DNA from: Clostridia bacterium
GTDB lineage: Bacteria; Bacillota; Clostridia; Christensenellales; UBA1242
Direction: 5' to 3'
Assembly: GCA_050872805.1 (NCBI GenBank)
Contig: JBNMHN010000001.1
Location: 1-58,371, forward strand
Length of the DNA: 58,371 bases
Each line of letters begins with the position of its first letter. Position 1 is the stretch's first letter. Under the pieces are notes generated by a model. The model was given only the letters and a program-made list of their open reading frames with translations. It searched no databases and had not been told where the DNA came from. The position numbers and the translations under genes are program-made. Positions 22,015 to 40,371 of this stretch are shown here, piece after piece.

Positions 22015-25000
22015 TTACCTGCCATTTGTGTCAATAAGTTCTTTGATTTTGTCGCGACTACTACGCTTCTCATTTATTTTGACAATCATAATGATAAAGA
22101 ATACTATCAATAGAAGTGCTAATATTCCACCAGCGATGACAAGCGGCCAGAAGATGTAGTTTTGCACTTCAATGTGCACAACTAGATTGCTCGTAATGTT
22201 GGAGAGATCTTGGTCATAAACTACTTTGTCGCCAAACTTTGTTTTAATCTTTGGCAAATCGGTCAAAGTTTTCCCGTACTCAACTTCTTTATACAAATGC
22301 GAGCCGTCTGGCATAATAATCGTGACAGTGTATTTATTGATTGTATACACAGCGTTGATTGTGAGTGGACTTGTGATGTTTGTCAAGTCAGCGTCTTCCC
22401 AATATGGTGCAACTTTATCGTATCCGATACGTGCAGGTATTACAGGAATTTCGCTTGGAGCAAGCGAGTCGCCGTACTTAACATATCTCAAAATCTTTTG
22501 TTCGTTTGCCACAAATGTTATGACAATGTCGTCTTTTTCAATTTTACCAAACAACACGAGGTCACTTGTGATAGATTTTCCAAAGTCAAAAAGTTGTGTC
22601 AAATCGACATCGGTATACCAGTTTGCAATGTGGTGTCCAACTTCGACAATAATGCCTGTTGGAATTTTCGCCCAGTGGTTGTAACCAACCTGCTGCGTTG
22701 CTTGCAATTCCCCATTGACATAGAAGTCGACCTTGAACTGTTGCAAAACATATTTACCGTAAATGTTTGTGTCACTTGTGATTATTTGGTCAAAGTCAAA
22801 TAGTGTCGTGAATGCAGCATCCGCATACCACCCCTCTAGGTCATAACCTGTGATGCCGACAGGGAAATTGACTTTCACCGTTTCGCCGTACTTGATTTCA
22901 ACGGTATCAAGCAATCTATCGCCATTGTAGAATCTAACTGTGTACGTATTTTTGTCAAACTCAGCATACAGGTTCAATTCGCCAGTGACTTGCGAACTAA
23001 ATGAATACATTGCGCCGTTCACCAAACGCCAACCAACAAAGTTGTATCCCTCTTTGATTGGGTCATTAGGTTTTGTAACAACACTTTCGTATTGGACTGA
23101 GTCTGTCCAGAATACTTCATCATCGACATAGAATGTGATTTTGTAGTTTGCTTTTTCATATTTTGCGTACAATGTGAGATCAGCATAGACTTCGTATGTC
23201 GCAAAATCAAATTCAGCAAGCGAGGAAATTGAGGCAAACCAGCCAATGAAGTCATAGTGCAAACGTGTTGGTCGCGTAGGTCTAGTTATCTTCCCGCCCC
23301 ACTCAACAGTGACTGTTGTGTATTGCGAATTTCCAAACAAACCTTCGCGCGCGTCAAACACTACTTTGTAAGTGTTTTTGTTCAAGTTTTCAACTGAGAT
23401 AACCATATCATCAGCAATTTGCGTGAGCATATATGCGCCGTTGATTGGCAATATCTCTTTCTTGACTTGAGTTGTTTTGATTGTTGCGTAAACGCGAATA
23501 TTGCTTTGTGAGTATGCTTCCAAGATAGTGATTTCAAACGCAAAGTCGTGATTGTAGAGAATCGTTGCCTTGCTGCCGTCCTCACTCAATGTGCCTTTGT
23601 ATGTATCCAAAACATTCAATGTCATAGAATCTTGTGGATACCCACTTGGCAAAGTAATTTCGTAACTTGCAATTGTCCAGAATGCAACAAATGTGCGTGA
23701 CTCTGTGTACTTGCAAATTGTCGTTGCTTCAATCGGCTCTCCTTGCGGAACATCGTTTACAATGCTCTCATACCAACCGCCAAAGTTGTAACCCTTTCTC
23801 TCGACGCGTGGCAAAGCGCCAAATGGCTTGCCGTGCTCAACTTTCATTCCGACAGGGTCAGCCGTACCGTTGTTAGCGTCAAAATACATTGTAATCCACG
23901 CGCTATTCCAAATTGCGTAGAGTGTGATTTCGTCACCTTCAACATCGGTTTCATTCAAAACCATTCCCATATTGGCAAAAATTTCGCCTGTGCCGTCCGC
24001 CGCAGTGTTCCACTCTTTGAATGTGTAACCAGCGTACGTGAACTTGTTCTCATTCAAAACATCTGAGATGTCGTACGTGAACTCTTGAGCATCCATTGTG
24101 CCAGTACCACCGTTTGCGTCAAACTTGATAGTGTACTTGATTGGCTCATATTCCGCTACAAGCGTGTATGTTCCTGCACCAAATGTGAACGCTCCCAAAG
24201 TATTATCAAATGTGCCGACACCCGAACCTGTCCAGCCAGTGAACTTGTACCCAGTTTTGCTTGGGTTAGCAACATTGTAGATTGTTCCGTATACTTTACT
24301 AATATTGAACACTCCAACCTTGTTGTTATATTCGTCGTCACTGTATGTCCCGCCGTTTGTGTTGATGACAAGCAAGTAGTTGTTCATTGCAAAGCTTGCC
24401 GTTAGTGTTGTGTTTACCAGCCATTCAATTGGCGAAGTTTCAGAATATTGCGTTTCGTCCACAAACCAACCAGTGAACTTGCTGCCCTCAAGTGAAACTT
24501 GCGGCAAAGCGCCGATTGAGGTTGTTCCGTCTGAATTTTCAATTTTTCCGAGCAAATCTTTGTAGTTGAATGTCTTTGTTGCAGAGTTTTTGTCCGCAGC
24601 CAAAGTCCAGCCATTCAAAGAACTTTCGTCAAATTGCGCGCCGTTTGCATCAAGCGTGATGACAATTTCAATTGGCGTCCATATTGCAGTGATTGTGGCG
24701 TTGCCAGAACCAAATGTAAATTTCCAAGTGTTTCCAGTCTTTTCAAATCTACCTTGCCCTTCAACAGCGTACTCAATTTCAAATCTTTCGAATTTATAAC
24801 CAGTCTTTGTTGGCGTAGATGTAATGTCATAACTTTGTCCGTTACTAGCCGTAAAGGTTATAACACTGCTATCTTGATCTAACAATTTACCGCCATCAAG
24901 ATCAATAGTCAAAGCAAATTTGTCAGCTGACCACGTAGCGTTCAAAGTCAAGTCTTGAGCGAACTCAACGCGTGTGAGCGGAGTATAAACATCTTTGTCG

Positions 25001-28000
25001 CCCTCAGTTCCGCTAATTGTCCAGCCAATAAATGTGTATCCATCGCGTATAGGTGTTGGCATTGCATTAATTCTATCGCCAAATGTAACAATTTTTGTCG
25101 CGAAATTGCTGCCTTCACCCACAATCCATTCTGTCGAGGTTGGAATTGAGGCAGGGTTTTCAGCGGTTCCGTTTGCATTGAAAGTTAGTGTGTAGGTATT
25201 TGCCGTATAGTTAGCAAGTATTATTGCGTCACTCTCTTTGAAAGTGAATGTAAGTTTTTCAGCGAGAGTTTCGCCACCACTTTGAGTGATATCCCCCGAA
25301 ACAATCGTGAACCCAGCAAAAGTATAACCTATTTTTGTCGGAGCAATGACATTAATAACATCTTTTGCGTGCCCAATAATTGTGAGTTGTTGCCCCTCAG
25401 CCGTACCGCCGTTGAGGTCAATCTTCAAAGTGAATTCATACTGTTCAAAGTAAGCGTACAAGGTGTGGTCTTCAGGATTTGTAACAATAGACGTGTCAAT
25501 AATCCTCTCGCCCTGTCCGTTCTCCTCCGTGAACCAGCCATTGAACTCCCAACCATAGCGGCTAACCTTTGGCAATGTGCCATACTTTTCACCATATGTG
25601 ACTTTCATTACATCGTCACTATGTGTAAGATCCGTCCAGTCAATTTCAACACCGTCCTCGATTGCATCGCTAGAGAGTTTGAATGTGACGTCGACCGACT
25701 GAGCCGCCCATTCTGCCGAAACAACCGCATTGCTTAACCCAAACGTGTACGTCCACGTACCGTCGCCATTGTTCTTTAGCGCGCCGTCGACCGTTGAAGT
25801 ATAACCAGTAAAGTCGTACCCCGTCTTAGTTGGCTCGCCAAATGTGAATGTTTCGCCGAATTTTTTGTTGATAGGATTTTCTTCAAGCACCAAATCGCCG
25901 CCGTTTAGAACAATCGTGAGTGATGTCGTGATTTCTTCAAACACAGCAAACAATGTGTGCGTTTCCGCATTCTTTACAAGAACTGATGGAATGATTTGCA
26001 CGCGGTTTTCATCGTCTCTGCTGTCAAACCAGCCGACAAAGTTATAGCCCGCCTTTGCTGGCGTTGGCAATTCGCCATACGCCTCATCAAACTTGACAGT
26101 CTTGCTTGCAATTTCGTTGCCGCTTGTCGCATTGTCATAGTCAAAGTTGACAATGATTTCTTTGTTTTCCCAAATTGCTACCAACTTGCAGTTGTCGTCA
26201 CCGAATGTAAAGTAAACTTTCCCTTCGCCCTCGCGAATATCAAGCGTACCCTTGTCGCCGACTTTTTCAAACTCTTTGAAAAGGTAACCGTAGCGTGTTG
26301 GAATACTGAAGTCGACAATTTCATTGAAATATGCCTCAAACTCTACATCCGTACTTGCCGCGCCGTCAATCGAACCGCCTGAAAGAATTACTTGCAACTT
26401 GTACTTGTGCAACTCCCAGTGTGCGTAAAGCGTGTGATTACGCGCAATCTTGACAGTCGTCGTATTGTCGATTTTCATTCCCTCATCGTCCGCAGTCGTG
26501 AACCAACCCACAAAATCGTAACCAGTCTTTGTTGGAACAGGTAGCGCGTCATACATTTGATCATATGTAACCTCAAGCGTCTCCGTCGTGTCTCCACCGT
26601 CAGCGCCGTTGTAGTCGAATGTTACAATGTACTTCTCGTTTTCCCAAACTGCCGTGAGCGTTGCATTACCCGCACCAAACACGAACTTGTAACTCGAAAG
26701 TTGTTCGTCTTGCGCCGTCAAAGTGCCCTCGCCCGTCATAATAAATCTAAGGAAACGGTACCCTTCACGCGTTGGCGTGTTGAATGTGACTTCATCTCCA
26801 CGTTTTTTGTCCTTAAAATCATATGTGTGTTGCGAATTGTTGAACACCCCGCCCTGAGGGTCAATCGTGAGAATGTACAAAATAGGTTCATATTGAGCAT
26901 AAAGGTCAAAGTTTGTAGGAATAGTTATTTCCATCTCATCAGTCATTTGGAATCCGCCATCAGGTTCCGTGAACCAACCAAGGAATCTATACCCCTCAAG
27001 TCTAGCGTTTGGCATTGCGCTGACAACATTGAATTTGTCGCCAAACTTATATTGGCGCATACCAGTCTTTTTGTCGTTTGAAATTGCCGTGTTCGACCCA
27101 AACAATTCGCCATCTTGCGCGTGGAAAGTAACTCTAATGTCCATTGCTTTCCAAATTGCATACAATGTGCTGTTGTCTGCACCAAACGTGAAGTGGTAAA
27201 TATCGCCGACTTTTTCAACCGAACCAATGCCGAGTCTGTTTTCGTAGCTTGCGAAATTGTAACCCGTCTTAGTTGGCGCCAAAATTTCAATTGTTTGCTC
27301 ATAAATACCCGTAAACGATTGAACTTGCTCTAAGTCGCCATATTTTCCGCCATCTAATTCTATAGTCAAAGTGTACAAAATATTTTCATATTTCGCCTTG
27401 ACAGTAATATCTTCAAGAATCTTAACAAGTTTGCTCTCGTCAATCAACTTGTCATCCGCATCAAACCAACCAAGGAATCTCATACCCGTCTTTGCCGCCA
27501 TTGGCAACACGCCGAATGTTTGGTCGTATGTGACGCCTTTCTTCGTGCCGTCGCCCTCGTATCCCTCAGTTTCGACATACTCGCCCCCGTCGTAGTCAAA
27601 CGAAACCGTGAACTTTAGCGCCGTCCAGTGAGCGCACAAAGTGTGGTCGCCCTTGTAGTTTACTATGCTTGAATCTGCAATTTGTATGTTCTTTTCTTCA
27701 AAGAACCAACCGTCAAAGTGATATCCCGTTTTTGTTGGAACAGGCAATACCCCATAAGGTTCGCCGTGGCTAACCGTGCGCGAATGTTCGCTTACCGTTC
27801 CGCCATTTGGGTCAAACGAAACAGTGTATTGATCTTCAACCCAATGAGCATACAATGTTTGATTGTTAGCAACAGTCACAATAGTTGTTTTTTCAATTTG
27901 CAAACTATCTGCACGCTCCGAAACGAACCACCCAGCAAAGACTTTCGTGTCGTGAACCGCAATCGGCATTTTTTCATAATATCCGCCAAATGTGACAGTG

Positions 28001-31000
28001 ATTTCGCCCTCGACACCACCAACAGCACCCGTGTATCCATCATCGCCAGCCGCAATGCGCCCACTGCCAGCATTGAACGTGATTGTGTAGGTGTTTGCAG
28101 TCCAGTGCGCATACAAAGTGATTGCGCCCGTGACAACGTCGTCAGCGTTAATCTTCTTGCCACCGTCTGCTAGAGTGTACCACCCCGCAAGAGTATACCC
28201 CTCACGAATTGCTTCAGGAATATCCCCATACGCTTCTCCATACGATCTAGTTATGGATGATTGAGTGAGTGTCCCTTTGTTTGCATCAAGAACGATTATA
28301 TAATCCGTAACTTTCCATTGCGCATACAACTTAACAGTATTACCATTTTCAGTTGTCAAGTTTTGGAAATACGCTCCGTCGCCATATCCATTACCATTTC
28401 CAGCCGCATCAAGCGTCCATTGAGTAAAAGTATAGCCTGTTTTAGTAAATCCAACACTTGGCAAACGCTTTCCTGAGTCATACTCGCATTGAATGTCATT
28501 CATACTCCCCTCAGCATCCGTGTCATTCTTTACAAATGTAACAGTATACTTAATAGGAGCCCATTGTGCCTCTATTCTACAGTTATCAGCCGCGAACTTG
28601 AACTTGAATTTCCCGTTCTCCTCCGTCAACTCTCCATCCCCAGTACGTTTCCATTCAGTAAGAAGATAACCAGTCTTTGTAGGAGCATCAAATGTTACTT
28701 CATCGTTAATTTGTCCATTGTAGTTTTGCGTTGCAGTCGAACCATCAATTTTTCCGTCGTTAAGAACAATAGTGAAAACATATATATTGTCGCCATAATT
28801 TGCTACCAAAGTAATGTCGTCTTCATAATTTACAATACTTGTTGAGTCAATACGAACGTTTCCATCGTACATAAATCCACTAAAGTCATGCCCAGCGTAA
28901 ACAATGTCGTCAGCAACTGGAATATTTTTATACATTTCACCAAACGTCGCAGTGATATGCCCGTTGTTGTCGGCACCAACATTATACTTAGTTTTTGCCG
29001 CATCCGTCCAAGTTGCGCCCATAGGGATGACAAGCGTAACATTTATTACGCGCACTTCCCATATTGCAGTAATTGTGTCGTTGTACGCATTAAATGTGTA
29101 TGTGTACCCGTCTGCAACATTACCAGTCAAATTGTCATTTTCTTCAAGCCCAACAAAATTGTATCCTCTGCGCTCAAAACTACTTGCGTAAATCTTAGTA
29201 GTTTTGCCATATTCTTCCGAAATTTTTGCCGCAGAATTTTTTCCATTGTAAGAACCGCCGTTAGGGTCAATCGTCAATTCATAGGTCTTGACGCTCCATT
29301 GAGCCACGAATGTCAAAACTTTGTTTGCAGTCGACGTCAAGTTTTTAACTGTCTCAGTGTTACCAAACTCAGTTCCCAACTCGTCGCATCTCCAGTTCTT
29401 GAAATCGTAACCCGCTTTAGTAAACGTGTTCATTGTGAGTGCAACAGAAGTATCATAGAAAATCGTTTGATTTTCCATTGTGCCAACACTACCAACTCCG
29501 CCCTCAAACTTGATTTGATATGAAATCGCGTTCCAGTTTGCAGTCAATGTGCCGTTACCCTCGCCAAACTTGTATGACGCGCCGCTCAAGCCTCTATAAC
29601 TCGTCGAACCATCTTTACCGACAAAAGTTTCCGTCCAACTAGCGAATGTGTAACCTTCACGTGTTGGAGTCGCAATTGGAATAGTATTGTTAAGCGCTTT
29701 CCCTTCAATTATTGTCGTCGTTGAACTTTCGCTATAAACTCCGCCATTAGGGTTGATTACCAAAGAATACCCATTTTGCGTCCAGTGTGCCGTCAAAGTG
29801 AAATCGCTCGTCTCTTTGACAATAGCAGAGCCACTGACAATCGTTCCGTCCGCACGCTTCCAGCCCGCAAATGTCTTACCACTTGTTTGCGGAATAGGGA
29901 GCGAACCATATTCTTTATCGTATGTAACAGTACGCGTTCTCTCCAAATCTCCGCCACCAACATTGGTAACGCCCTCTTGAACATAATCAAATGTCAAAGT
30001 GTAGGTATTTGGCGTCCACTGAGCAGAAAGTTCGGCATTTCCAAGCCCGAAAGTGAACATCCACTTGCCCGTCGAATCACTTGCAACGCCGTCATCATTA
30101 GACATATGTTTGAACGCCGTAAACGTGTAACCCGTTCGTGTCGGAATTGGTATTTCGTACGCTTTCCCAAAGTCGCCCTGAAGAGTTGCCGTTGTAGTTG
30201 TCGGTGAACCAAAGTACCCGCCGTTTGCAGAAATTGTGGCAATATACTTGCTTGTACTCCAGCCCGCATAAAGCGTGATGTTTTTAGTGAATTCAAACGG
30301 AGTATTTGTTTCAATTTTTGTCCCTTTCATATTTTGTTCGGTATACCAGCCCGCGAAAGTGAACCCTCTCAAAGTAGCCGACGGCAAAGTTCCGTATGGC
30401 TCATTGAAGTGCGCTGTAATGTTTGTTGTAGAACTTCCGCCCTCATAGTCTCCAAACTTGTCAATCGTACCTTTGCCCGCATCAAATGTGACCACATAGT
30501 CAATGATGTCCCAAAGCGCAATGACCCTGATATCTACTTCGGAATTGAAAGTGCTACCCGCAAAAACTGGAGCATTGCTGCCGTCATCTTTGACATAGTA
30601 TACAAAATCATACCCAATGCGTTCAACCGTTGGCAACAAGCCAATGGTACTATCATAAGAGCCTCTAATCTTGACATATCCGTTCTCATACGTGCCACTA
30701 CCACTGTCCTTGAAAACACCACCATTTGCATCAAACGTATATGTTACTTGAATCGCACTAAATTGCGGATAAAGTCTCATATCGTCCAAAACTTGAGTAT
30801 CGACAGTGACATTGTTGCCTTTTTCATCTCTAAAGCCAGTGAGGTTGTACCCACGCTTCGTGAGTGTCGGGAACGCGCCTATCTTTTCGCCGTAACTAAA
30901 TGTTTTTTTGAGCGCATATGACCCAGAATTTTGATAATTGTTTGACGAAACAACGTTTGTGTTCAATATGTCTATCGTGACAGTATATGTGTTGCCTACC

Positions 31001-34000
31001 CATTTAGCATACAATCTAAATTCGCCCGCATCTACTGTAGTGAGGTTATAAACAATTTGCTCATCGGTATAAATATCGCCTGTTCCATTACTATTTGGTG
31101 TCCAACCCCTAAAGTCGAAACCACTTCTTTGGTAAGTATTTTTCGAGAGTTTTACACTCTGCCCATATTTTACTGTCATTTTAGACATTTCAGTACCAGT
31201 AGCGTCCGCACTGTTCTTGTCAAAAACTATGTAGTAGGTGTTTGCTTGATATTGTGCATACAAAGTGTGCGTATTTGTCACAGTCCAAGTCTTTTCGATG
31301 TATAATGAACTATCTTCATCTTTCGCCCAGCCAAGGAACTTGAAGCCCACCTTGCTTGCCGTTGGCAAATCGTCATATTGCTCCCCATATTCATATTCTT
31401 TGCTAGCAACTTTGCTAGACCCGCCATTTGCGTTGAAAATTACAAGATATGTTTCATTTTCATAATGTGCATAAATGGTAACATCCTTGGTAAATCTAAC
31501 AATTGTGGATGGCACATACTGCGCGCCAGTCCCTTCTTTGCTTTCAAACCATCCAACTAGGCGTGCTCCCGACTTTGTGACGTTCGGGAAATCTCCAATT
31601 GGTTCATTGTAAGTGACGTCCTTGGTATAAGTGTCACCCGCGTTAAAAATTCCACCATTTGCGTTGAAAGTCAATCTGTACTTATTTGCCGTCCATTTTG
31701 CGGTCAAGGTAACTGTTTCCGTGATAATATCACTCGCAGAAGCCTGTTTGTCTGAAGCATAGAACCACCCAGCAAGCGTATAACCAGCAAATGTAGCAGT
31801 AGGTAAAGCGCCTATTTGGCTGTTGTACGGAATTATTCTTTGTGATGTTTGAGCCTTGCCCCCCATTGCATCAAAGAATACCATAACACTTTCGACTTCA
31901 AAACGCGCATATAGCGTTTTTGCGCCCGAAAACTTGTATACACTTGATTCAGCATATGAAGTCGAGTTTTCACCCGTCCCGTCGTACCACCCTCTAAAGT
32001 TGTAACCATCAAGGGAAGCCGTTGGCAACACGCCGAAAGGAGCATCGTATGTCATAGTCTTTGTAGCAGAATGTTTGTCAGCCGAAATATTCCAGCCGTT
32101 TGCAGCATTAATAGTTGCGTTGCTAGCGCTAAGTGTCAAAGTATACGTATTTGCCGTAAACTTTGCATACAACGTGCGAGACTCGGTCACCTTATCGCTT
32201 GTTTTTACAAGCGTGTTGTACGTGTTTTGGTAGTACCAGCCGTCAAAGCGATACCCAGTTTGCGTCGCGTTTGGCAAGACGCCCAAAGTTTGGCCGTAGT
32301 TGTACGTAACGATTGAAATACTCTCATTCACTCTGCCAGTAAACCCAGCCGTCGTCACAATCGTACCCGCGCCAGCACTAAATGTGACTGTGTACGTGAT
32401 TGCTTTCCATTGCGCGTAGAGCGTAAGTGTTTCGCCGTTCTTTGAAGTCAAATTGTAAACATCAGCACCGTCAACAAACCCCGATCCTTTGCCGTCTGCC
32501 TTAGTGTTCCAGCCGTTGAAAGTCCAGCCCGTCCTAGTAAATGCGTTGAGCGTCAATGTTCCGTGAGAACCGTATGTGTATGACGAAGCACCCATACTCC
32601 CAACGCCGCCGTTTGCATTGTACGCAACAGTATATCCGTTTGCATTCCACCTTGCCACAACCGTAGCATCACTATCACCAAACGTAAATGTAAAGCCTGA
32701 TAGTGTACCCGCCGCTCCTGTAGTCTTTTCCCAATTGACAAATGAGTAACCCTCTTTTGTCAAACCACTCGGCAAGGCAAGTTTCTCGCCAGTAGTTCCA
32801 GGTACCGTGTAGGCGCCCTGACCATTGTCACGGTCGACTGTCAAGACAAACGGAGTCGCCGAAAATTTTGCGTAAAGCGTTTTGCTGTTGTCTTCATCGT
32901 ATTTTGTGGACGTTTGCCAAACCTTTTCACTTGACGCACTTTCATACCACCCCAAAAATCTATATCCTGTCTTTGTAGCGGACGGCATATCGCCGATTTT
33001 AGCATCGTACGTGACAGTTTTTACGTAATTGCCCCCACTCGCCGTGACGCCCGACGGAATCACTCCCCAAGATTCACTAGAGTCGTTTAATACAAATGTC
33101 ATAGTGTAACGCTTTGGCGTGAATTTTGCTGTAATTGTCGCACTCCCCGCCCCGAAAGTAAACTGCGTTTTTGTCACAGAGCCCGAGCCAGATATTTCCC
33201 AGCCGGTATGATCATATCCAGTGCGAGTCACAGTCCCAAGGTCAATAGTCCGCCCATATATACCAGTGATCAAAGTCTTATCGCCGCTATAGGTACCGCC
33301 CATAGGGTCAATTCTCAACGTATATTCATTGCTCGTCCACCTAGCATATAAAGTTATATCCACATCAAAGTCGACAACATTATCTTTAGTGTATTGTTTT
33401 GCCGAATTCTCAATAAACCAGCCCTGAAATGTAGATCCCGTTTTTGTTGGCGTCGGCATTGTGCCAATCAATGTACCATAGGTAACAGTTTTGTCTGCAA
33501 TACGACCATTTTTATTCCAACCATTTATATTAGCCCAATTTTTTGAATTGCTATCTGCATCCGATGCACTTAATGTCAGTTTCAATGACTTTACATTCCA
33601 CTGAGCATAAATAATCGTCTCGTATGAGCCATTACCTTGGGAATAGAGAGAAAATGTGCTTGAATTTACTGAAGTTGTAAGCGAAATTTTATTTCCATCT
33701 TGTGTATTATTTACTTTGCTCCAATGCGAAAATGTGTATCCAGTTCTTATCGGCGTTGGTAATCTGACCGCATTTCCATATGCCGCACTTAATGAAGATG
33801 GCTCTCCGCTCGGCAAATAACCGCCGTTGAGTTCATAGTTGATTGTAACAGTAGCCGGCCCATAATGCGCATACAAAGTCCCGTTACCTGCTGTTTGCCA
33901 CGTGTTTTCAGTCGATATTAAATTATTGGCGTAATACTGTGTGCCTTTACCATTAATTTCAGTAAAGTATCCTTGGAAAACATAATATTCTTTTTGGGGC

Positions 34001-36381
34001 TTCATACTACTAGACAAATCAGGTAGCGGTCTATCGTATGTTGCAGTCACTTCACTTGGCCCATCAGTCCCGCCTTGTTGGTCGAAGCTTACTGTATATG
34101 TATTCGCCGTCCAATGCGCATAAAGTGTCATTGAAGAGTTAATTGGAGTTTCTCGATCGATTTGGCTCCCGCCACTCAACGCATCCCACCAACCATTGAA
34201 TGCATAGCCAGTTCTCTTGACAACCGGAAAATTATCTATCGTTTTGCCATACGTGATTTCTTTATCATCACCACCAGTAATACTGCCCCCGTTAGGGTCA
34301 AATTTTATTGTTGCTACCTTCCGCGTCAAGCCCGCATATAGGTTGATTTCAGTTCTTGTGTCTGTTATAATCGTGTCTTTGCCTATCTCTGCGCCTTGCC
34401 CTTTTGTCACAGTAACGTCATTTATTGTTTCGGTCGATTTATCATTATAAAACTTTCCATCCCAATCATAATATTGTGGCACGTGATTTGCTATTTGCTC
34501 TGTTGTCGGCCAACTTTTATCCCCCTCAACGACTTCACTATATTTTTTTGCAAACTTTGAATAGTATGTTGAGACTACTCCATCATTGACATAGAAGTTT
34601 ATTTTGACTTTTTGCGCTTCCCAGTGCGCATATAGGGTTATGTCCGATGTTATTGGTACAAGTCCATTACCATTCGAATCAATATATTGCGTTCCATCAC
34701 TGCTTCCTGTATAATAACCTAAAAATATATACCCACCTCTTGTAGGGATGTCAATTTTCCCAACCTTTTGGTCTTGTATCACAGTTAACGAACTAGTTCC
34801 ACCATTTGTATAATTTTTATCTAATGTAACAGTGTACTTTGCTAATGTTGTCTTTTCTTCATAATAGTTGTAAGGTGCAGCCGATTTCTCAGTCCACGCA
34901 GTTGTCCCTTTGGGGGTAATATACAAAGTTGTAGTTGTACGAATTTCCCCTTCATCACTACTTTTGCTTGTGCCGTCAGTCCAATTTGAAGAATATATGT
35001 TTACTTGCCCCGGTTTAAATGTGTCTTTCGAAGTACAAAAATCCTTATCATTTTCAATAGAGTTACATACAAGTCCATTATGGTTACCAAAAAGATAAGG
35101 CCCTGTTTCAGTACTACGATAAGCACATGGCCTATTTTGGCTTTCTTCATTCAAGCCGATATAAATGCATGCCGTAGATTTATGATCCTCTCTATATCCA
35201 TACCCTAAAATTGAGCCTTTACTTGTAGCGGTCATTGTACCTCGTGCATAAGACTCATAAATGTGGATGTGCGCATCTCTATCATCAAGCCACGCATTTC
35301 CCGCATTTGCAAATGCATAACCTACAATACCACCAGCAGCTACACCATTAGTCGCTTTTATATCTGCTACACTCGCGCATTGTGAAACATATGTGTTACC
35401 TGAAGTATTCCTACTCCCCGTACTATATGTATCAGCAAGAGCGTAACCGGCAATTCCACCTACATTTTTATTACCTGTAATGTTGCCCGTATTCCAGCAA
35501 TATGTCAAACTTGCACTCTTAGAACCCCTGCCTTTGATCTCCCCTACAATTCCACCTACATTGTCACTAGTATTAGAAACATCATTGCTATTTGAATGTT
35601 TTTTAGTTTCACCATTCCCCACACTATCTGTCACACCCCCCTTCGTCATCACGCCACGCTTTTGCGCTTGAGAGAACCATGTGTCGATGCTTGAGAGTGT
35701 GCTCATTGAGACATCGGTCAATTCGTTGGTTGGGAAGCCGATTTTTTCAATGTCGTTTGAGCCGTTTGTTGAGTATGAAATGTTTGTGTTTTCGGCATAG
35801 CCGACGATACCGCCGACTGCACCTTCGCCACTACGAGAAGAAACATTGACATACGAGTTGCGCATATCAACTTTAGTGATAAGAGATTCCTTTACAACAC
35901 CAAAAAGGCCATAGTAGTCGTATCTATCGCCTGTCATTGTCATAAAGTATATTGCTTTTTGAGCGCCGTCAAACGTACCCATAAACGGGTGCGCCATTGT
36001 ACCGATTGGCGTCCACTCGCGCCCTGCGAGATTGAGTTCGCTTGTCAGCGTGAAGTACATTCCCTCATAGGTTGTACCCGCATTGACGTTGCACGCGAGT
36101 TGCGCCAAGTCGGTTGCCGTCGCGATTTTGAACGCGTCCGTCTCCGTACCACTGCCCGCCCACGTCTCCGTGCCGAACACTTGCGGTGTGAGTCCGTCCG
36201 TCCATTCGGCGACCGCCGCGACTTTTTTGCTGACAAACGATTGCACAATCGGTGCCGCGATAATGGCTGTCATTGCCAAAATTGCGAAGAAAAGAGCAAG
36301 CAAAAAGTTAAATCTTCTCTTTTGTCTCCTCTCTCCAACCTCAACCAGCACCGACCCTGTCAGCGTTCTCAAATTATCCAT
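22015..36381 (-). CDS. giant (4,788 aa) tail-anchored surface protein: N-terminal TM, GLUG-motif region, approx 50 Listeria-Bacteroides (Flg_new) repeats, C-terminal TM
   Basis: Uninterrupted 14.4-kb frame. ATG at 36381 preceded by AGAGGAGAAAG. VGGIVGY / VGGIAGY GLUG-like motifs. Repeats follow the pattern YTVTFDANGG...GYTFxGW...LYAxW. C-terminus WPLVIAGGILALLLIVFFIIMIV + KINEKRSSRDK. Confidence 0.9.
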   Translation of the reverse strand: MDNLRTLTGSVLVEVGERRQKRRFNFLLALFFAILAMTAIIAAPIVQSFVSKKVAAVAEWTDGLTPQVFGTETWAGSGTETDAFKIATATDLAQLACNVNAGTTYEGMYFTLTSELNLAGREWTPIGTMAHPFMGTFDGAQKAIYFMTMTGDRYDYYGLFGVVKESLITKVDMRNSYVNVSSRSGEGAVGGIVGYAENTNISYSTNGSNDIEKIGFPTNELTDVSMSTLSSIDTWFSQAQKRGVMTKGGVTDSVGNGETKKHSNSNDVSNTSDNVGGIVGEIKGRGSKSASLTYCWNTGNITGNKNVGGIAGYALADTYSTGSRNTSGNTYVSQCASVADIKATNGVAAGGIVGYAFANAGNAWLDDRDAHIHIYESYARGTMTATSKGSILGYGYREDHKSTACIYIGLNEESQNRPCAYRSTETGPYLFGNHNGLVCNSIENDKDFCTSKDTFKPGQVNIYSSNWTDGTSKSSDEGEIRTTTTLYITPKGTTAWTEKSAAPYNYYEEKTTLAKYTVTLDKNYTNGGTSSLTVIQDQKVGKIDIPTRGGYIFLGYYTGSSDGTQYIDSNGNGLVPITSDITLYAHWEAQKVKINFYVNDGVVSTYYSKFAKKYSEVVEGDKSWPTTEQIANHVPQYYDWDGKFYNDKSTETINDVTVTKGQGAEIGKDTIITDTRTEINLYAGLTRKVATIKFDPNGGSITGGDDKEITYGKTIDNFPVVKRTGYAFNGWWDALSGGSQIDRETPINSSMTLYAHWTANTYTVSFDQQGGTDGPSEVTATYDRPLPDLSSSMKPQKEYYVFQGYFTEINGKGTQYYANNLISTENTWQTAGNGTLYAHYGPATVTINYELNGGYLPSGEPSSLSAAYGNAVRLPTPIRTGYTFSHWSKVNNTQDGNKISLTTSVNSSTFSLYSQGNGSYETIIYAQWNVKSLKLTLSASDADSNSKNWANINGWNKNGRIADKTVTYGTLIGTMPTPTKTGSTFQGWFIENSAKQYTKDNVVDFDVDITLYARWTSNEYTLRIDPMGGTYSGDKTLITGIYGRTIDLGTVTRTGYDHTGWEISGSGSVTKTQFTFGAGSATITAKFTPKRYTMTFVLNDSSESWGVIPSGVTASGGNYVKTVTYDAKIGDMPSATKTGYRFLGWYESASSEKVWQTSTKYDEDNSKTLYAKFSATPFVLTVDRDNGQGAYTVPGTTGEKLALPSGLTKEGYSFVNWEKTTGAAGTLSGFTFTFGDSDATVVARWNANGYTVAYNANGGVGSMGASSYTYGSHGTLTLNAFTRTGWTFNGWNTKADGKGSGFVDGADVYNLTSKNGETLTLYAQWKAITYTVTFSAGAGTIVTTAGFTGRVNESISIVTYNYGQTLGVLPNATQTGYRFDGWYYQNTYNTLVKTSDKVTESRTLYAKFTANTYTLTLSASNATINAANGWNISADKHSATKTMTYDAPFGVLPTASLDGYNFRGWYDGTGENSTSYAESSVYKFSGAKTLYARFEVESVMVFFDAMGGKAQTSQRIIPYNSQIGALPTATFAGYTLAGWFYASDKQASASDIITETVTLTAKWTANKYRLTFNANGGIFNAGDTYTKDVTYNEPIGDFPNVTKSGARLVGWFESKEGTGAQYVPSTIVRFTKDVTIYAHYENETYLVIFNANGGSSKVASKEYEYGEQYDDLPTASKVGFKFLGWAKDEDSSLYIEKTWTVTNTHTLYAQYQANTYYIVFDKNSADATGTEMSKMTVKYGQSVKLSKNTYQRSGFDFRGWTPNSNGTGDIYTDEQIVYNLTTVDAGEFRLYAKWVGNTYTVTIDILNTNVVSSNNYQNSGSYALKKTFSYGEKIGAFPTLTKRGYNLTGFRDEKGNNVTVDTQVLDDMRLYPQFSAIQVTYTFDANGGVFKDSGSGTYENGYVKIRGSYDSTIGLLPTVERIGYDFVYYVKDDGSNAPVFAGSTFNSEVDIRVIALWDIIDYVVTFDAGKGTIDKFGDYEGGSSTTNITAHFNEPYGTLPSATLRGFTFAGWYTEQNMKGTKIETNTPFEFTKNITLYAGWSTSKYIATISANGGYFGSPTTTTATLQGDFGKAYEIPIPTRTGYTFTAFKHMSNDDGVASDSTGKWMFTFGLGNAELSAQWTPNTYTLTFDYVQEGVTNVGGGDLERTRTVTYDKEYGSLPIPQTSGKTFAGWKRADGTIVSGSAIVKETSDFTLTAHWTQNGYSLVINPNGGVYSESSTTTIIEGKALNNTIPIATPTREGYTFASWTETFVGKDGSTSYRGLSGASYKFGEGNGTLTANWNAISYQIKFEGGVGSVGTMENQTIFYDTSVALTMNTFTKAGYDFKNWRCDELGTEFGNTETVKNLTSTANKVLTFVAQWSVKTYELTIDPNGGSYNGKNSAAKISEEYGKTTKIYASSFERRGYNFVGLEENDNLTGNVADGYTYTFNAYNDTITAIWEVRVINVTLVIPMGATWTDAAKTKYNVGADNNGHITATFGEMYKNIPVADDIVYAGHDFSGFMYDGNVRIDSTSIVNYEDDITLVANYGDNIYVFTIVLNDGKIDGSTATQNYNGQINDEVTFDAPTKTGYLLTEWKRTGDGELTEENGKFKFKFAADNCRIEAQWAPIKYTVTFVKNDTDAEGSMNDIQCEYDSGKRLPSVGFTKTGYTFTQWTLDAAGNGNGYGDGAYFQNLTTENGNTVKLYAQWKVTDYIIVLDANKGTLTQSSITRSYGEAYGDIPEAIREGYTLAGWYTLADGGKKINADDVVTGAITLYAHWTANTYTITFNAGSGRIAAGDDGYTGAVGGVEGEITVTFGGYYEKMPIAVHDTKVFAGWFVSERADSLQIEKTTIVTVANNQTLYAHWVEDQYTVSFDPNGGTVSEHSRTVSHGEPYGVLPVPTKTGYHFDGWFFEEKNIQIADSSIVNYKGDHTLCAHWTALKFTVSFDYDGGEYVETEGYEGDGTKKGVTYDQTFGVLPMAAKTGMRFLGWFDADDKLIDESKLVKILEDITVKAKYENILYTLTIELDGGKYGDLEQVQSFTGIYEQTIEILAPTKTGYNFASYENRLGIGSVEKVGDIYHFTFGADNSTLYAIWKAMDIRVTFHAQDGELFGSNTAISNDKKTGMRQYKFGDKFNVVSAMPNARLEGYRFLGWFTEPDGGFQMTDEMEITIPTNFDLYAQYEPILYILTIDPQGGVFNNSQHTYDFKDKKRGDEVTFNTPTREGYRFLRFIMTGEGTLTAQDEQLSSYKFVFGAGNATLTAVWENEKYIVTFDYNGADGGDTTETLEVTYDQMYDALPVPTKTGYDFVGWFTTADDEGMKIDNTTTVKIARNHTLYAHWELHKYKLQVILSGGSIDGAASTDVEFEAYFNEIVDFSIPTRYGYLFKEFEKVGDKGTLDIREGEGKVYFTFGDDNCKLVAIWENKEIIVNFDYDNATSGNEIASKTVKFDEAYGELPTPAKAGYNFVGWFDSRDDENRVQIIPSVLVKNAETHTLFAVFEEITTSLTIVLNGGDLVLEENPINKKFGETFTFGEPTKTGYDFTGYTSTVDGALKNNGDGTWTYTFGLSNAVVSAEWAAQSVDVTFKLSSDAIEDGVEIDWTDLTHSDDVMKVTYGEKYGTLPKVSRYGWEFNGWFTEENGQGERIIDTSIVTNPEDHTLYAYFEQYEFTLKIDLNGGTAEGQQLTIIGHAKDVINVIAPTKIGYTFAGFTIVSGDITQSGGETLAEKLTFTFKESDAIILANYTANTYTLTFNANGTAENPASIPTSTEWIVGEGSNFATKIVTFGDRINAMPTPIRDGYTFIGWTISGTEGDKDVYTPLTRVEFAQDLTLNATWSADKFALTIDLDGGKLLDQDSSVITFTASNGQSYDITSTPTKTGYKFERFEIEYAVEGQGRFEKTGNTWKFTFGSGNATITAIWTPIEIVITLDANGAQFDESSLNGWTLAADKNSATKTFNYKDLLGKIENSDGTTSIGALPQVSLEGSKFTGWFVDETQYSETSPIEWLVNTTLTASFAMNNYLLVINTNGGTYSDDEYNNKVGVFNISKVYGTIYNVANPSKTGYKFTGWTGSGVGTFDNTLGAFTFGAGTYTLVAEYEPIKYTIKFDANGGTGTMDAQEFTYDISDVLNENKFTYAGYTFKEWNTAADGTGEIFANMGMVLNETDVEGDEITLYAIWNSAWITMYFDANNGTADPVGMKVEHGKPFGALPRVERKGYNFGGWYESIVNDVPQGEPIEATTICKYTESRTFVAFWTIASYEITLPSGYPQDSMTLNVLDTYKGTLSEDGSKATILYNHDFAFEITILEAYSQSNIRVYATIKTTQVKKEILPINGAYMLTQIADDMVISVENLNKNTYKVVFDAREGLFGNSQYTTVTVEWGGKITRPTRPTRLHYDFIGWFASISSLAEFDFATYEVYADLTLYAKYEKANYKITFYVDDEVFWTDSVQYESVVTKPNDPIKEGYNFVGWRLVNGAMYSFSSQVTGELNLYAEFDKNTYTVRFYNGDRLLDTVEIKYGETVKVNFPVGITGYDLEGWYADAAFTTLFDFDQIITSDTNIYGKYVLQQFKVDFYVNGELQATQQVGYNHWAKIPTGIIVEVGHHIANWYTDVDLTQLFDFGKSITSDLVLFGKIEKDDIVITFVANEQKILRYVKYGDSLAPSEIPVIPARIGYDKVAPYWEDADLTNITSPLTINAVYTINKYTVTIIMPDGSHLYKEVEYGKTLTDLPKIKTKFGDKVVYDQDLSNITSNLVVHIEVQNYIFWPLVIAGGILALLLIVFFIIMIVKINEKRSSRDKIKELIDTNGR

Positions 36382-36431
36382 ATCTCTTTCTCCTCTAGTA
36401 GTCAATTTTATGTTTTGTTTTTTACTCTTTA

Positions 36432-36461
36432 ATTGTACTAAAATTCGACAAATAAAGTCAA
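36432..36461 (-). promoter_or_regulatory. candidate promoter TTGACT-18-TACAAT for the giant gene
   Basis: Minus strand: TTGACT (36461-36456), TACAAT (36437-36432). Lies between the repeat array and the RBS. Confidence 0.4.
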
Positions 36462-36469
36462 ACACTTTT

Positions 36470-36985
36470 GCCCCATTTTTACAAAATATTTTTGCGGCGG
36501 GGATAGCCCCGCGGCTGCAGATACTGGCGGGGATAGCCCCGCTGCTGCAGGTACTGTCCCTACGCGCCATTTGCTTTCGTGGACGGCATAGTGCATTCCA
36601 TTCTTTTCACTTTTTGTTCTCGTGTGGGAATATCCCCGCCGCTGGTGCGATAGCGCACTGCTACTGGTACTGTCCCTACACACCAGCCACTTTCATAGAC
36701 GGCGAACGCGACTGCTTTCTATGCCGTACAGTTCTCGAGTGGGGATAGCCCCGCGGCTGCAAATACTGTCCCTACTCTCAACCGACTTTCGCGGACGGCA
36801 AACGCAACTGCTTTCTATGCCGTACAGTTCTCGGGTGGGGATAGCCCCGCCGCTGGTGCGATAGCGCACTGCTACAGATGCTTTCCCTACGCGTCATTTG
36901 CTTTCGTGGACGGCGTAGCACATTTCATCCTATCCGCTTCAGTTCTCGGGTGCTTTCGCACCCGCGCCAGCAATCAAGCAAAAAA
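36470..36985 (-). repeat. intergenic mosaic repeat locus R5: tandem array of L units (alternating approx 96 and approx 114 bp)
   Basis: GGGGATAGCCCCGC-type hairpins start at approx 36497, 36527, 36624, 36739, 36835 and 36948. Each full unit carries GTACTGTCCCTAC, GGACGGC and GCTTTCTATG. Every second unit has an extra GTGCGATAGCGCAC. Confidence 0.9.
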
Positions 36986-37017: not shown

Positions 37018-37065
37018 TTGATTTTCTCCAGTAACTCGACTATAATAAGAGTTAGTGGAGAAAAT
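37018..37065 (+). promoter_or_regulatory. abiE promoter TTGATT-17-TATAAT bracketed by inverted repeat ATTTTCTCCA / TGGAGAAAAT
   Basis: TTGATT at 37018-37023 and TATAAT at 37041-37046. Inverted-repeat arms at 37021-37030 and 37056-37065 (25-bp spacer). The distal arm contains the SD. Confidence 0.65.
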
Positions 37066-37647
37066 ATGATAAAAACAACAAAGATTTTGTTGGGCGAACT
37101 GTCCAATTATGCTCGTCCATATGACAAGATAAGGCGACTTGTAGCAGAAAAAAAACTTATTCCAATTATCAAGGGGTTGTACGAAACGGATGCAACCGTT
37201 TCGGGGCATTATCTTGCAGCGAGCATTTGTGGCCCCTCCTATTTGTCCTTTGAGTTCGCTTTGTCTTACTATGGACTGATTCCAGAAGCGGTTTACACAA
37301 TCACGTCTGCGACATTCAAAAAACATAAACGCAAAGAATACGATACACCATTTGGCTTTTTTACCTATCAAGATGTGCCAAAAAGTGCGTACCCTTGGGG
37401 GATTAAAATCGTCGATGAAAATGGTTACGCCTTTCAAATAGCGTCCCCTGAAAAAGCGCTTTGCGACAAACTTTATGCTTTGCACCCATTGCAAAATTTA
37501 GGCCAGTTGCAAACGCTGCTTTTTGACGATTTGCGAATTGACGAAAACGGATTTTGTAAACTAAACAAGGACGACATTGATTTTCTTGCCGATAAGTACA
37601 AAAGCAAGAATGTCACACTGCTTGCAAAATTTATGAGGAGAACTTGA
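37066..37647 (+). CDS. abiEi: type IV toxin-antitoxin / abortive infection AbiEi-family antitoxin (transcriptional regulator)
   Basis: Position immediately upstream of an AbiEii gene (1-nt gap). N-terminal wHTH-like region and a SFEFALSYYGLIPE-type segment. ATG at 37066 after GGAG. Confidence 0.7.
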   Translation: MIKTTKILLGELSNYARPYDKIRRLVAEKKLIPIIKGLYETDATVSGHYLAASICGPSYLSFEFALSYYGLIPEAVYTITSATFKKHKRKEYDTPFGFFTYQDVPKSAYPWGIKIVDENGYAFQIASPEKALCDKLYALHPLQNLGQLQTLLFDDLRIDENGFCKLNKDDIDFLADKYKSKNVTLLAKFMRRT

Positions 37648-37648
37648 T

Positions 37649-38515
37649 ATGAATCCTATTATTGATGAAATGCTGAAAAATTATAATGCGAACAATCTTA
37701 ATGACAAAAAAAATGCAATCAAAGAGATAATGCAGGAAATCGTTTTGTGCGGACTTAGCCGCGCGGGCTTTTTTGACAAGGCAGTTTTTTATGGCGGCAC
37801 GGCTTTGCGCATATTCTATGGGCTGGATAGATTTTCTGAAGATTTAGATTTTTCTCTCAGGACTCAAGACCCTAGTTTTAATCTTGAAAAGTTTTTCCCC
37901 ATTTTGGAGAGAGAGGTAAATTCGCTAGGCTTGAATGTTAAAATTGAAAACAAAGAAAAAACTTTTGATTCAGCAATCAAGTCCGCCTTTTTAAAAGGCA
38001 ATACAAAGGAACACCTTTTGATGTTTTACTCAGATAATTCGCTTGTCAAGGGGATAAATCCTGAGGAAGTCATAAAAATTAAATTTGAGATAGACACCAA
38101 TCCGCCCCCTTTTGCAACGTTTGAAACTATGTATAGGTTGCAGCCAAGCCCCTACGAAATTAGTTTGTACGATTTACCTTCGTTGTTTGCTGGCAAAATT
38201 AGCGCCGTGCTTTGCAGAGCGTGGAAAAATCGTATCAAGGGGAGAGATTTGTATGATTACATTTTTTACCTTCAAAAAAATGCGGCTTTCAATTTAAAGC
38301 ACCTGCAAGCAAGGTTGGTTCAAGCAGGATTTATCGAAGATGGGCAAACGATAACACTTGACGATGTAAAAGCGCTTTTAAACAAAAGGTTTGACAGCAT
38401 TGATTATGAGGACGCAAAAAAAGATGTAATTCCATTTATCAAAGACCCCCTCGCTTTAAATGTATGGAGTAAAGATTTTTTCAAGGCAATTACACAAAAC
38501 CTAAAAGCGGAATAA
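37649..38515 (+). CDS. abiEii: AbiEii/AbiGii-family nucleotidyltransferase toxin (DUF1814)
   Basis: FYGGTALRIFYGLDRFSEDLDFS NTase motif. 288 aa. Confidence 0.85.
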   Translation: MNPIIDEMLKNYNANNLNDKKNAIKEIMQEIVLCGLSRAGFFDKAVFYGGTALRIFYGLDRFSEDLDFSLRTQDPSFNLEKFFPILEREVNSLGLNVKIENKEKTFDSAIKSAFLKGNTKEHLLMFYSDNSLVKGINPEEVIKIKFEIDTNPPPFATFETMYRLQPSPYEISLYDLPSLFAGKISAVLCRAWKNRIKGRDLYDYIFYLQKNAAFNLKHLQARLVQAGFIEDGQTITLDDVKALLNKRFDSIDYEDAKKDVIPFIKDPLALNVWSKDFFKAITQNLKAE

Positions 38516-39324: not shown

Positions 39325-40371
39325 ATGGATTTTGCATCACTATTCAACAACTTTTGGTCGACCACTGGTGTGACCTTGATAAAAACATTTGCGATAATCG
39401 TTTTGGGGCTACTGCTCATCAAAATTATTATGCGCTATGTGAGAAAAGTGTTTATGGCGTCGCAAATGGAGGCGGGCTTGAGTTCTTTTCTCTTGTCCGT
39501 CATTCGCGCGGTGCTATATGTTTTGCTGATTTTCCTCATTTTTTCGACGCTTGGCGTGTCGATGGGCGCGTTCATTGCCGCACTGTCGGCTGCGGGCTTG
39601 GCGGTTGCTCTTGCACTGCAAGACAGTTTGAGCAACCTTGCTTCGGGCATTCTCATTTTGGTGAACAAGCCGTTTGTTGAGGGCGACTACATTCGCGTTG
39701 GAACGGACGAAGGGACAGTTAAGTCTGTGCGCATTTTCACGACGCAAATCGAAAGTTATGACAAAAAAGTCATCACAATTCCAAACAAGTCAGTCATCAA
39801 CAGCAATGTTGTCAACTACACATCAAGCCCGACGCGCCGCGTCACGATTTTGTTTTGCGTACCATATAATGCGGATATTGACTACATCAAAAAAGTCCTT
39901 TTTGAGGAATTTAAGACTTGCAAGTATGCAATCAAATCCCCTGCTATGTTTGTGGGTATTGAAAATTACGACGACCACGGCGTTCAAATGGTTTTGAAGA
40001 TTTGGAGCAAGTCGGAAGATTACTGGGGGCTATATTATCTTGCGTACGAAAAACTTACGCGCGCGCTTAATGAGGCTGGCATCACAATCACAAACGACCA
40101 TTCTATTATTAACATTTCGGACGCTGAGCGCAAATTGAAAGAAAACGAAACGCGCAAGGCGATTTATGAAAGCAAATTGAAAGCACAAAAAGAGAACGAC
40201 GAAAAAGCCGCAAAAGCAAAGCAAATTGAGAAAAAAGTTGAAAAAGAAGAAAAAACACAAAATTTTGAAACAAAAATTACTACAATAGAGGAAAATGCTG
40301 ACCTTTTGGAAGAAAAACCAAAGAAAAAACGCAAATTTTTGTGGGGGCGTAAAAATGATGAAGAAAATTAA
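39325..40371 (+). CDS. mechanosensitive ion channel family protein (MscS-like) with Lys/Glu-rich C-terminal tail
   Basis: Three TM segments, then the MscS beta-domain pattern LASGILILVNKPFxxGDYI...GTVxxVxIxxTxI...IPN. Confidence 0.85.
   Translation: MDFASLFNNFWSTTGVTLIKTFAIIVLGLLLIKIIMRYVRKVFMASQMEAGLSSFLLSVIRAVLYVLLIFLIFSTLGVSMGAFIAALSAAGLAVALALQDSLSNLASGILILVNKPFVEGDYIRVGTDEGTVKSVRIFTTQIESYDKKVITIPNKSVINSNVVNYTSSPTRRVTILFCVPYNADIDYIKKVLFEEFKTCKYAIKSPAMFVGIENYDDHGVQMVLKIWSKSEDYWGLYYLAYEKLTRALNEAGITITNDHSIINISDAERKLKENETRKAIYESKLKAQKENDEKAAKAKQIEKKVEKEEKTQNFETKITTIEENADLLEEKPKKKRKFLWGRKNDEEN

Follow-up and report, generated by a model that had tools for sequence, protein, structure and literature searches.

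Monzon et al. list Flg_new as a stalk domain of fibrillar adhesins and describe beta-solenoid N-terminal adhesive domains (10.1101/2021.12.07.471604 = PMC9210967). Ebh of Staphylococcus aureus is a giant, LPXTG-less, membrane-anchored and fibre-like protein that takes up ~1% of the genome (PMC3868527, PMC5031765). Here we describe a minus-strand gene of 14.4 kb in a stretch of 58,371 nucleotides (nt) from contig JBNMHN010000001.1 of an uncultured Clostridia bacterium of the gut with a small genome (assembly GCA_050872805.1); the whole stretch is called the window below. The gene encodes a single real giant protein of 4,788 amino acids (aa), which represents a new, unnamed family within the already known class of fibrillar adhesins. 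Judged from sequence and structural models, the product is probably a Sec-exported, tail-anchored fibrillar surface protein, and most likely an adhesin. An earlier annotation made from the letters of the window and its open reading frames (ORFs) is called the sequence-only reading.

Results

A stalk of about 52 diverged Flg_new modules

In the ORF listing of the window, the minus-strand ORF at 22015-36381 forms a single 14.4-kb frame without interruption. The frame itself extends over 22015..36570, and an in-frame ATG at 36570 would give a longer ORF of 4,851 aa. This longer ORF was rejected and the ATG at 36381 taken as correct, because the upstream ATG lies inside a cluster of hairpin repeats that resemble repetitive extragenic palindromic (REP) elements and upstream of a promoter-like site, and because the orthologues share an MD.LR... 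start at the equivalent of 36381. The Shine-Dalgarno sequence AGAGGAG stands directly before this ATG. The gene is monocistronic and makes up 1.1% of its genome (G000; 1.30 Mb in 159 contigs, 94.6% complete), and its product contains 13 Cys only in the composition of 4,788 aa.

In a Pfam search with the whole protein, PF09479 (Flg_new) scored 971 bits against a cut-off of 27 (33 stretches, E 7.6e-301) and PF18998 (Flg_new_2) scored 143 bits (3 stretches), and in NCBIfam TIGR02543 scored 319 bits against a cut-off of 21. The InlB B-repeat structure 2Y5P was matched by phmmer with the C-terminal 561 aa as the query (E 0.0018). A profile iterated on the protein itself delimits 48 units in residues 514-4544, each at E<1e-9, and nearly all of the linkers between them are exactly 2 residues long. 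About four more units are degenerate (residues 590-681 and three within 4545-4740), which brings the total to ~52 modules. The units fall into two subtypes, a canonical subtype A (...GY.F.GW...LYA.W) and a Flg_new_2-like subtype B (...PT.TGY.F...F.FG..N.T..A.W), and along the stalk the 48 units read AAAAABABAAAAAAAAAABABABABAAAAABABABABABABABAAAAA, with strict A/B alternation in units 18-25 and 30-43. The ~100-aa module at residues 4236-4335 has no Pfam match; its AlphaFold2 (AF2) model is of low confidence (predicted local distance difference test, pLDDT, 63), and a Foldseek search with it returned nothing at E<0.03.

The identity between the 48 units is 26% on average and 45% at maximum. Tandem Repeats Finder reported no tandem repeat within the gene, and the longest internal direct DNA repeats are <=60 nt with 60-90% identity. 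Because the units are strongly diverged and long internal DNA repeats are missing, neither recent expansion nor assembly collapse fits. The sequence-only reading had counted about 50 Flg_new units by eye in one uninterrupted giant frame, and had argued from their divergence at the DNA level against recent expansion or an assembly artefact and for a rod-like fibre. These claims hold up: the Pfam score lies far above the cut-off, the count is 48 clear plus ~4 degenerate units, the start of the frame is matched in the orthologues, and the repeats appear old and diverged; a rod-like fibre is the probable form.

Conservation of length and module order among orthologues

Full-length orthologues measure 4,739, 4,753, 4,783, 4,783 and 4,826 aa. 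Open frames of 4,770-4,784 aa are present in four congeneric genomes, and two more genomes bear contig-truncated copies; the sampled genomes of the family range from 0.8 to 1.3 Mb. Of five full-length orthologues examined, four contain 48 clear units each, and 50 were counted in the most distant one. When the units were compared with those of the orthologue P0004, 47 of 48 were most similar to the unit of the same ordinal number (65% identity, vs 38% for the runner-up). Aligned with P0004, the protein shows only 87 gap columns in 4,788 residues, and the locus of P0004 (L001) is syntenic, with the same flanking genes as in the window. Because of these position-for-position matches, we take the repeat array to be old and each of its modules to be individually conserved.

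Termini and membrane anchoring

Among all 19-residue Kyte-Doolittle (KD) windows along the chain only two exceed 1.6, one at residues ~25-47 (2.61) and one at ~4743-4767 (3.21). The N-terminal hydrophobic segment covers 23 residues (25-47, at 36241-36309). In the alignment, a small-residue motif (AVA/AVA/QVA) is kept in all orthologues directly before the first head residue, and the conserved A-V-A sits 9-11 residues beyond the hydrophobic region (h-region) of the segment. These features are consistent with residues 1-58 being a Sec signal peptide or else a signal anchor, and we lean toward cleavage of the segment. At the other end the last 21 residues, KINEKRSSRDKIKELIDTNGR, are basic. The K(I/L)KELI motif in this tail is retained even in the most distant orthologue, and a K[ILV]KEL[IL] tail was found in no other protein of the source genome. 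The way the charges are distributed agrees with an N-in, C-in orientation, in which the 4,690 residues that separate the two segments lie outside.

A sorting motif shared with other proteins of the genome at the N- or C-terminus was considered and rejected, phmmer giving hydrophobic-segment noise only. Within the noise of the tail search surfaced a candidate SipW-like (S26B-type) signal peptidase of 270 aa with two transmembrane (TM) segments, encoded on contig C48 of the source genome (ORF start near 1864).

No LPxTG or NPxTG motif occurs anywhere in the 4,788 aa, and the five matches to the loose pattern [LI]Px[TSA][GANSD] are all distant from the C-terminus. Sortase (PF04203) was not found in the source genome (94.6% complete) or in 24 further sampled genomes of the same family (0/25 including the source genome), whereas it was found in 10 of the 16 further families of the order. 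The source genome encodes a penicillin-binding protein transpeptidase, and the cells are therefore walled. At least six other ORFs of this genome have a signal peptide and end in a TM segment and a basic tail, for example those at 14648-16720 and 49540-52245 of the window and one of 2,531 aa on contig C19. Because the lineage has small genomes and no detectable sortase, it appears that membrane anchoring of surface proteins replaces LPXTG wall anchoring in this family.

The sequence-only reading had placed a TM segment at either end of the protein and regarded this as an unusual topology for a Gram-positive adhesin. Its C-terminal TM segment with a short basic tail and no LPXTG motif agrees with the hydropathy peak, the charge of the tail and the empty motif scan. 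At the N-terminus the hydrophobic segment was confirmed; its layout fits a Sec signal, so that it may be either a signal peptide or an anchor. The unusual topology could not be upheld in view of this layout, and it is further weakened by the similarly built ORFs of the same genome, by the failure to find sortase in the 25 family genomes and by the precedent of Ebh.

If the N-terminal segment were an uncleaved type II signal anchor, the ectodomain of ~4,690 residues would form a giant hairpin or loop held in the membrane at both ends. The 23-residue h-region and the two lysines after it would suit such an anchor, as would the 80-90% conservation of the n-region and h-region among close orthologues, which is above that of most of the head. 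However, in such a loop the head would sit at the membrane beneath the wall, which would defeat a 52-module stalk, and the conserved AVA/AVA/QVA stands directly before the start of the beta-helix. Moreover, the other tail-anchored proteins of the source genome have ordinary signal peptides with c-regions of ~9-11 residues, and it is the whole of the first 200 residues that is conserved, not the anchor alone. We therefore consider anchoring at both ends unlikely, and favor a fibre that is anchored at its C-terminus and carries its head at the far end.

A hypervariable distal half

Identity to P0004 and P0006, two orthologues from sister species, was computed in bins of 200 residues. It amounts to 84-92% in residues 1-200, falls to 23-57% in most of residues 200-2800, and returns to 75-92% from about residue 3000 to 4788. 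The flanking housekeeping proteins are mostly 86-98% identical between the window and L001, the exceptions being a 601-aa PKD-like protein (69%) and a YcxB-like protein (79%). As a measure at silent sites, we used four-fold degenerate sites within conserved codons. Differences at these sites reach 54-69% in residues 400-2800 (59-69% up to residue 2400), mostly near saturation and possibly with some inflation by misalignment, whereas they are 26-45% in residues 2800-4788 and 20-42% in the flanking genes. The distal part thus appears to be older than the genome background, beyond a faster change at the protein level.

It is also evident that relationships among the orthologues conflict between segments. 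In residues 201-520 of the head, P0004 is nearest to P0007 and P0005 (57-58% identity), and its identity to the window protein is only 40%. The proximal stalk of P0004 shares 82% identity with the window protein and is likewise nearest to P0002 and P0006 (82%), with 50% identity to P0007. Because silent-site divergence in the distal part exceeds that of the flanks and because the relationships differ in this way, we infer that the tip and the distal stalk were replaced by recombination between lineages while the number of modules was kept.

These patterns bear on whether the protein is a non-adhesive spacer or shield, namely a steric 'bumper' or coat that acts through its length, masks surface molecules and fends off phages, antibodies or neighbours, as shown for S. 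aureus Ebh, SraP and SasG. The strict conservation of length and module number would be expected of such a coat, in keeping with the length-dependent shielding by Ebh (PMC6548404), and the acidic, Thr-rich composition would also suit it. Against such a coat, the distal tip bears a conserved beta-helix head, the second half of which is hypervariable and seems to have been swapped among lineages; features of this kind are met more typically in binding or antigenic modules than in passive spacers. A non-adhesive function seems improbable to us on these grounds, but shield and adhesin are non-exclusive roles and the shield is a serious rival to the adhesin.

A predicted GLUG-type beta-helix at the tip

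The GLUG family (PF07581) scored 21.0 bits when residues 57-520 were searched and 19.9 bits for residues 1-515, on either side of the gathering cut-off of 20.5, and it was not listed in the whole-protein Pfam search at E<=0.01. Among 24 aligned homologous heads, 15 were matched by GLUG, with a best E of 5e-15. The AF2 model of the head, built from the 24-sequence alignment, has a pLDDT of 72 and a predicted TM-score (pTM) of 0.76 and consists of short strands, as is usual for a beta-helix, besides two long insertions of low confidence at model residues 154-215 and 379-408. In a Foldseek search with this model, the first match was 3N6Z, a 'putative IgA1 protease' of Bacteroides ovatus (E 1.7e-6, probability 1.00), followed by 7JGJ and 7UVK, the IgA1 proteases of S. 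pneumoniae and G. haemolysans. The head sequence itself matched nothing significant in PDB (best E 0.28). The GLUG region that the sequence-only reading had proposed from motifs is thus borderline by its profile score, and gains support from the GLUG-annotated homologous heads and from the fold, for which the prediction on this sub-segment gave a beta-helix with the GLUG beta-helix 3N6Z as the top structural match. Related head modules are found in 3,160 representative proteins at E<=1e-10, and the proteins listed are mostly very large and often have several copies. Two other giant frames of relatives also contain a GLUG-type head module (G009:C58:20619-20996 in a 5,966-aa frame and G017:C7:78345-78629 in a 5,504-aa frame).

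The best Foldseek matches are annotated as IgA1 proteases, and pectate lyases and tailspikes, which often contain a right-handed beta-helix, are both among the weak matches; a tethered enzyme could therefore be imagined, in which a catalytic head (a glycan lyase, a hydrolase or an IgA-protease-like enzyme) is held off the cell by the stalk. However, no HExxH motif occurs anywhere in the protein and Pfam gave no match to Peptidase_M26_C, the M26 catalytic domain; the GLUG helix of IgA1 proteases is their non-catalytic N-terminal domain; and the lyases and tailspikes stand far down the list, at E>0.1 and TM<0.2. An enzymatic head is thus very unlikely, and the model is best read as a GLUG-type beta-helix without the protease part.

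Genomic neighbourhood

The giant gene is flanked by a YcxB-like gene and a methionine gamma-lyase gene on one side and by yqeY and mscS on the other, and its features are collected in table 1. Compared with L001, the window has an upstream insertion that consists of the AbiEii-type gene and the repeat cluster. The AbiEii-type gene and the ORF that precedes it (together 37018-38515) sit between the giant gene and yqeY; L001 has no such pair at its syntenic site, and a recent insertion therefore seems to be the origin. The cluster is likewise absent from the orthologous intergenic region of L001. The 14-nt core of its hairpin, GGGGATAGCCCCGC, occurs in 50 copies across the 1.3-Mb source genome, and the hairpin is therefore regarded as a REP-like dispersed repeat. 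The sequence-only reading had pointed out that the largest repeat array of the window precedes the gene; the array is there, and with its hairpin spread over the genome it is not specific to the gene. A regulatory RNA of the giant gene was considered for this array and rejected, Rfam giving only a sub-threshold chance miRNA match and the core being repeated 50 times in the genome.

The PKD-like protein noted above is encoded at 40295-42100 of the window, next to mscS. It is another fast-evolving protein, as its divergence from the L001 counterpart shows, and is probably exposed at the surface. In the lineage of P0005, the giant gene is relocated and is followed by a convergent glycosyltransferase-2/TPR gene (L003 24482-25525, L005 14906-15949), which hints at a possible glycosylation of the Thr-rich fibre.

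Table 1. Positions in the window of the giant gene, its predicted parts and the adjacent upstream features
Feature	Position	Strand	Remarks
Complete coding sequence including stop	22015..36381	minus	4,788 aa, 528 kDa, pI 4.8, 12% Thr
N-terminal region, residues 1-58	36208..36381	minus	Basic n-region (ERRQKRRF), 23-residue hydrophobic segment, AVA before E59; conserved
Head, residues 59-513	34843..36207	minus	Predicted GLUG-type right-handed beta-helix with long variable loops, without HExxH
Hypervariable distal part, residues ~201-2800	27982..35781	minus	Second half of head and ~30 distal modules; 35-57% aa identity to orthologues of sister species
Main stalk, residues 514-4235	23677..34842	minus	45 clear Flg_new modules and one degenerate (590-681), 2-residue linkers
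All-beta module of ~100 aa, not Flg_new, residues 4236-4335	23377..23676	minus	Kept in orthologues
Membrane-proximal stalk, residues 4336-4740	22162..23376	minus	Three clear and ~three degenerate Flg_new modules
Predicted C-terminal TM helix, residues 4743-4767	22081..22155	minus	IFWPLVIAGGILALLLIVFFIIMIV; KD 3.21
Basic tail, predicted cytoplasmic, residues 4768-4788	22018..22080	minus	K(I/L)KELI motif
Promoter-like site TTGACT-18-TACAAT	36432..36461	minus	~50 nt upstream of ATG; consensus match only
Repeat cluster	36470-36985		Units of ~96-116 bp, each with hairpin GCGGGGATAGCCCCGC
AbiEii-type nucleotidyltransferase toxin gene	37649-38515		Pfam AbiEii; preceded by ORF 37018-37647

Discussion

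A working model of the fibre

The basic and hydrophobic N-terminal segment would direct the nascent chain to the Sec translocon and would probably be removed after A58, while ~4,690 residues are threaded outwards. The C-terminal helix would then act as a stop-transfer anchor, with the basic tail kept in the cytoplasm according to the positive-inside rule. The ~52 Flg_new beta modules with their 2-residue linkers could form a stiff stalk that passes through the peptidoglycan and holds the GLUG-type head at its far end; at an assumed rise of 3-4 nm per module, the stalk would be ~150-200 nm long. The conserved first coils of the head would carry the variable second half, a likely ligand-binding or antigenic surface, and the number of modules would stay fixed while the distal half is swapped or diversified between species. 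That the head may be the adhesive domain is suggested by its distal N-terminal position, its predicted beta-solenoid fold and its hypervariability.

Several points weigh against this picture. The TM and signal calls come from hydropathy and motif inspection rather than from a trained predictor, and the 23-residue h-region, the AVA at 9-11 residues beyond it and the unusually conserved first 58 residues also fit an uncleaved anchor. Solved structures match the head model with modest TM-scores only (0.35/0.47), pLDDT is below 50 in a quarter of the model, and the figure of 150-200 nm for the stalk is assumed. Some giant surface proteins moreover counteract adhesion, for example Ebh and SasG (PMC6548404). 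In addition, the exact protein sequence is known from only one contig of a metagenome-assembled genome; an assembly artefact or a decaying pseudogene is nevertheless very unlikely, given an uninterrupted 14.4-kb frame, the lack of long internal DNA repeats able to mislead an assembler, colinear orthologues that agree in length and come from several independent assemblies and species, and only 87 gap columns vs P0004 over 4,788 residues.

Going beyond the tail-anchored adhesin, we can envisage a fixed-length attachment organelle of small-genome, possibly partner-dependent Clostridia. A scaffold inherited vertically would be made up of the ~2,000 residues nearest to the membrane and of the initial coils of the head, and the second half of the head together with ~30 distal modules would be a cassette exchanged by homologous recombination, like the tips of phage tail fibres. 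This extension is speculative and on the whole rather unlikely; if true, it would mean that partner or host specificity is re-assorted without a change in the reach of the fibre. In a further variant, both the N-terminal segment, which is conserved, and the K(I/L)KELI tail, which is unique, might stay in the membrane and link the fibre to a partner in the cytoplasm.

Little is understood about the uncultured Clostridia of the gut whose genomes measure 0.8-1.3 Mb. The giant gene is a prime candidate for attachment to mucus, particles or other microbes, because it occupies 1.1% of the genome and keeps a near-constant length and place across the genus.

Comparison with known systems

The InlB B-repeat of Listeria (2Y5P) is a member of the Flg_new family, as are the stalk modules. 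In contrast to internalins, the giant protein has no leucine-rich repeats (no such Pfam match) and bears ~52 repeat copies instead of one or a few. In NCBIfam, internalin_A scored 362 bits vs a cut-off of 1600, and the match covers the B-repeat part of the model only.

With the GLUG / Peptidase_M26_N beta-helix domains, namely BACOVA_03286 (3N6Z) and the N-terminal domains of IgA1 proteases (7JGJ, 7UVK), the head shares the predicted fold, next to its borderline GLUG score. Unlike the M26 IgA1 proteases, the giant protein is without a metalloprotease domain or HExxH, and its head has long low-confidence insertions.

Periscope proteins such as SasG, Aap, Sgo_0707 and Rib (PMC8201768) also project an N-terminal functional domain on a rod of tandem beta domains from the Gram-positive surface. 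Their repeats are nearly identical at the DNA level and vary in copy number between strains (PMC8201768), whereas in the giant protein the repeats are 26% identical on average, DNA repeats are not detectable and 48 clear units recur in four orthologues. The giant gene thus shows neither the highly similar tandem DNA repeats nor the variation in copy number that define periscope proteins. Its fixed-length stalk of positionally orthologous modules with a mosaic tip stands in contrast to the periscope model and may serve as a marker for strain-level tracking.

Ebh was reportedly described by Clarke and colleagues in 2002 as having an N-terminal export signal, a repeat rod and a C-terminal membrane segment with charged residues. 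Like the giant protein, Ebh and Embp are built as very large fibres that are anchored in the membrane, lack LPXTG and occupy ~1% of the genome (PMC3868527, PMC5031765). The repeats of Ebh are alpha-helical FIVAR/GA and there is no GLUG head, whereas the giant protein has Flg_new beta repeats, and no sequence homology between them was detected in Pfam and NCBIfam scans. Compared with the sortase-anchored LPXTG class, the giant protein lacks the motif before its C-terminal hydrophobic segment, and its genome has no detected sortase gene.

A close likeness is seen with the fibrillar adhesins of Monzon et al. The giant protein is long, has tandem stalk-type domains and is predicted to have a surface anchor, as in that class; it shares with these adhesins a very long chain, an N-terminal putative adhesive domain distal to a C-terminal anchor and a tandem Flg_new stalk, and its predicted beta-solenoid head resembles their clusters 1, 10 and 12. 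It differs from them by a TM helix and a basic tail in place of an LPXTG motif or wall-binding domain, and by a stalk that is exceptionally long at ~52 modules. Giant Flg_new proteins and tail-anchored fibres of Gram-positive bacteria being already known, current concepts stand, and the new family finds its place within them.

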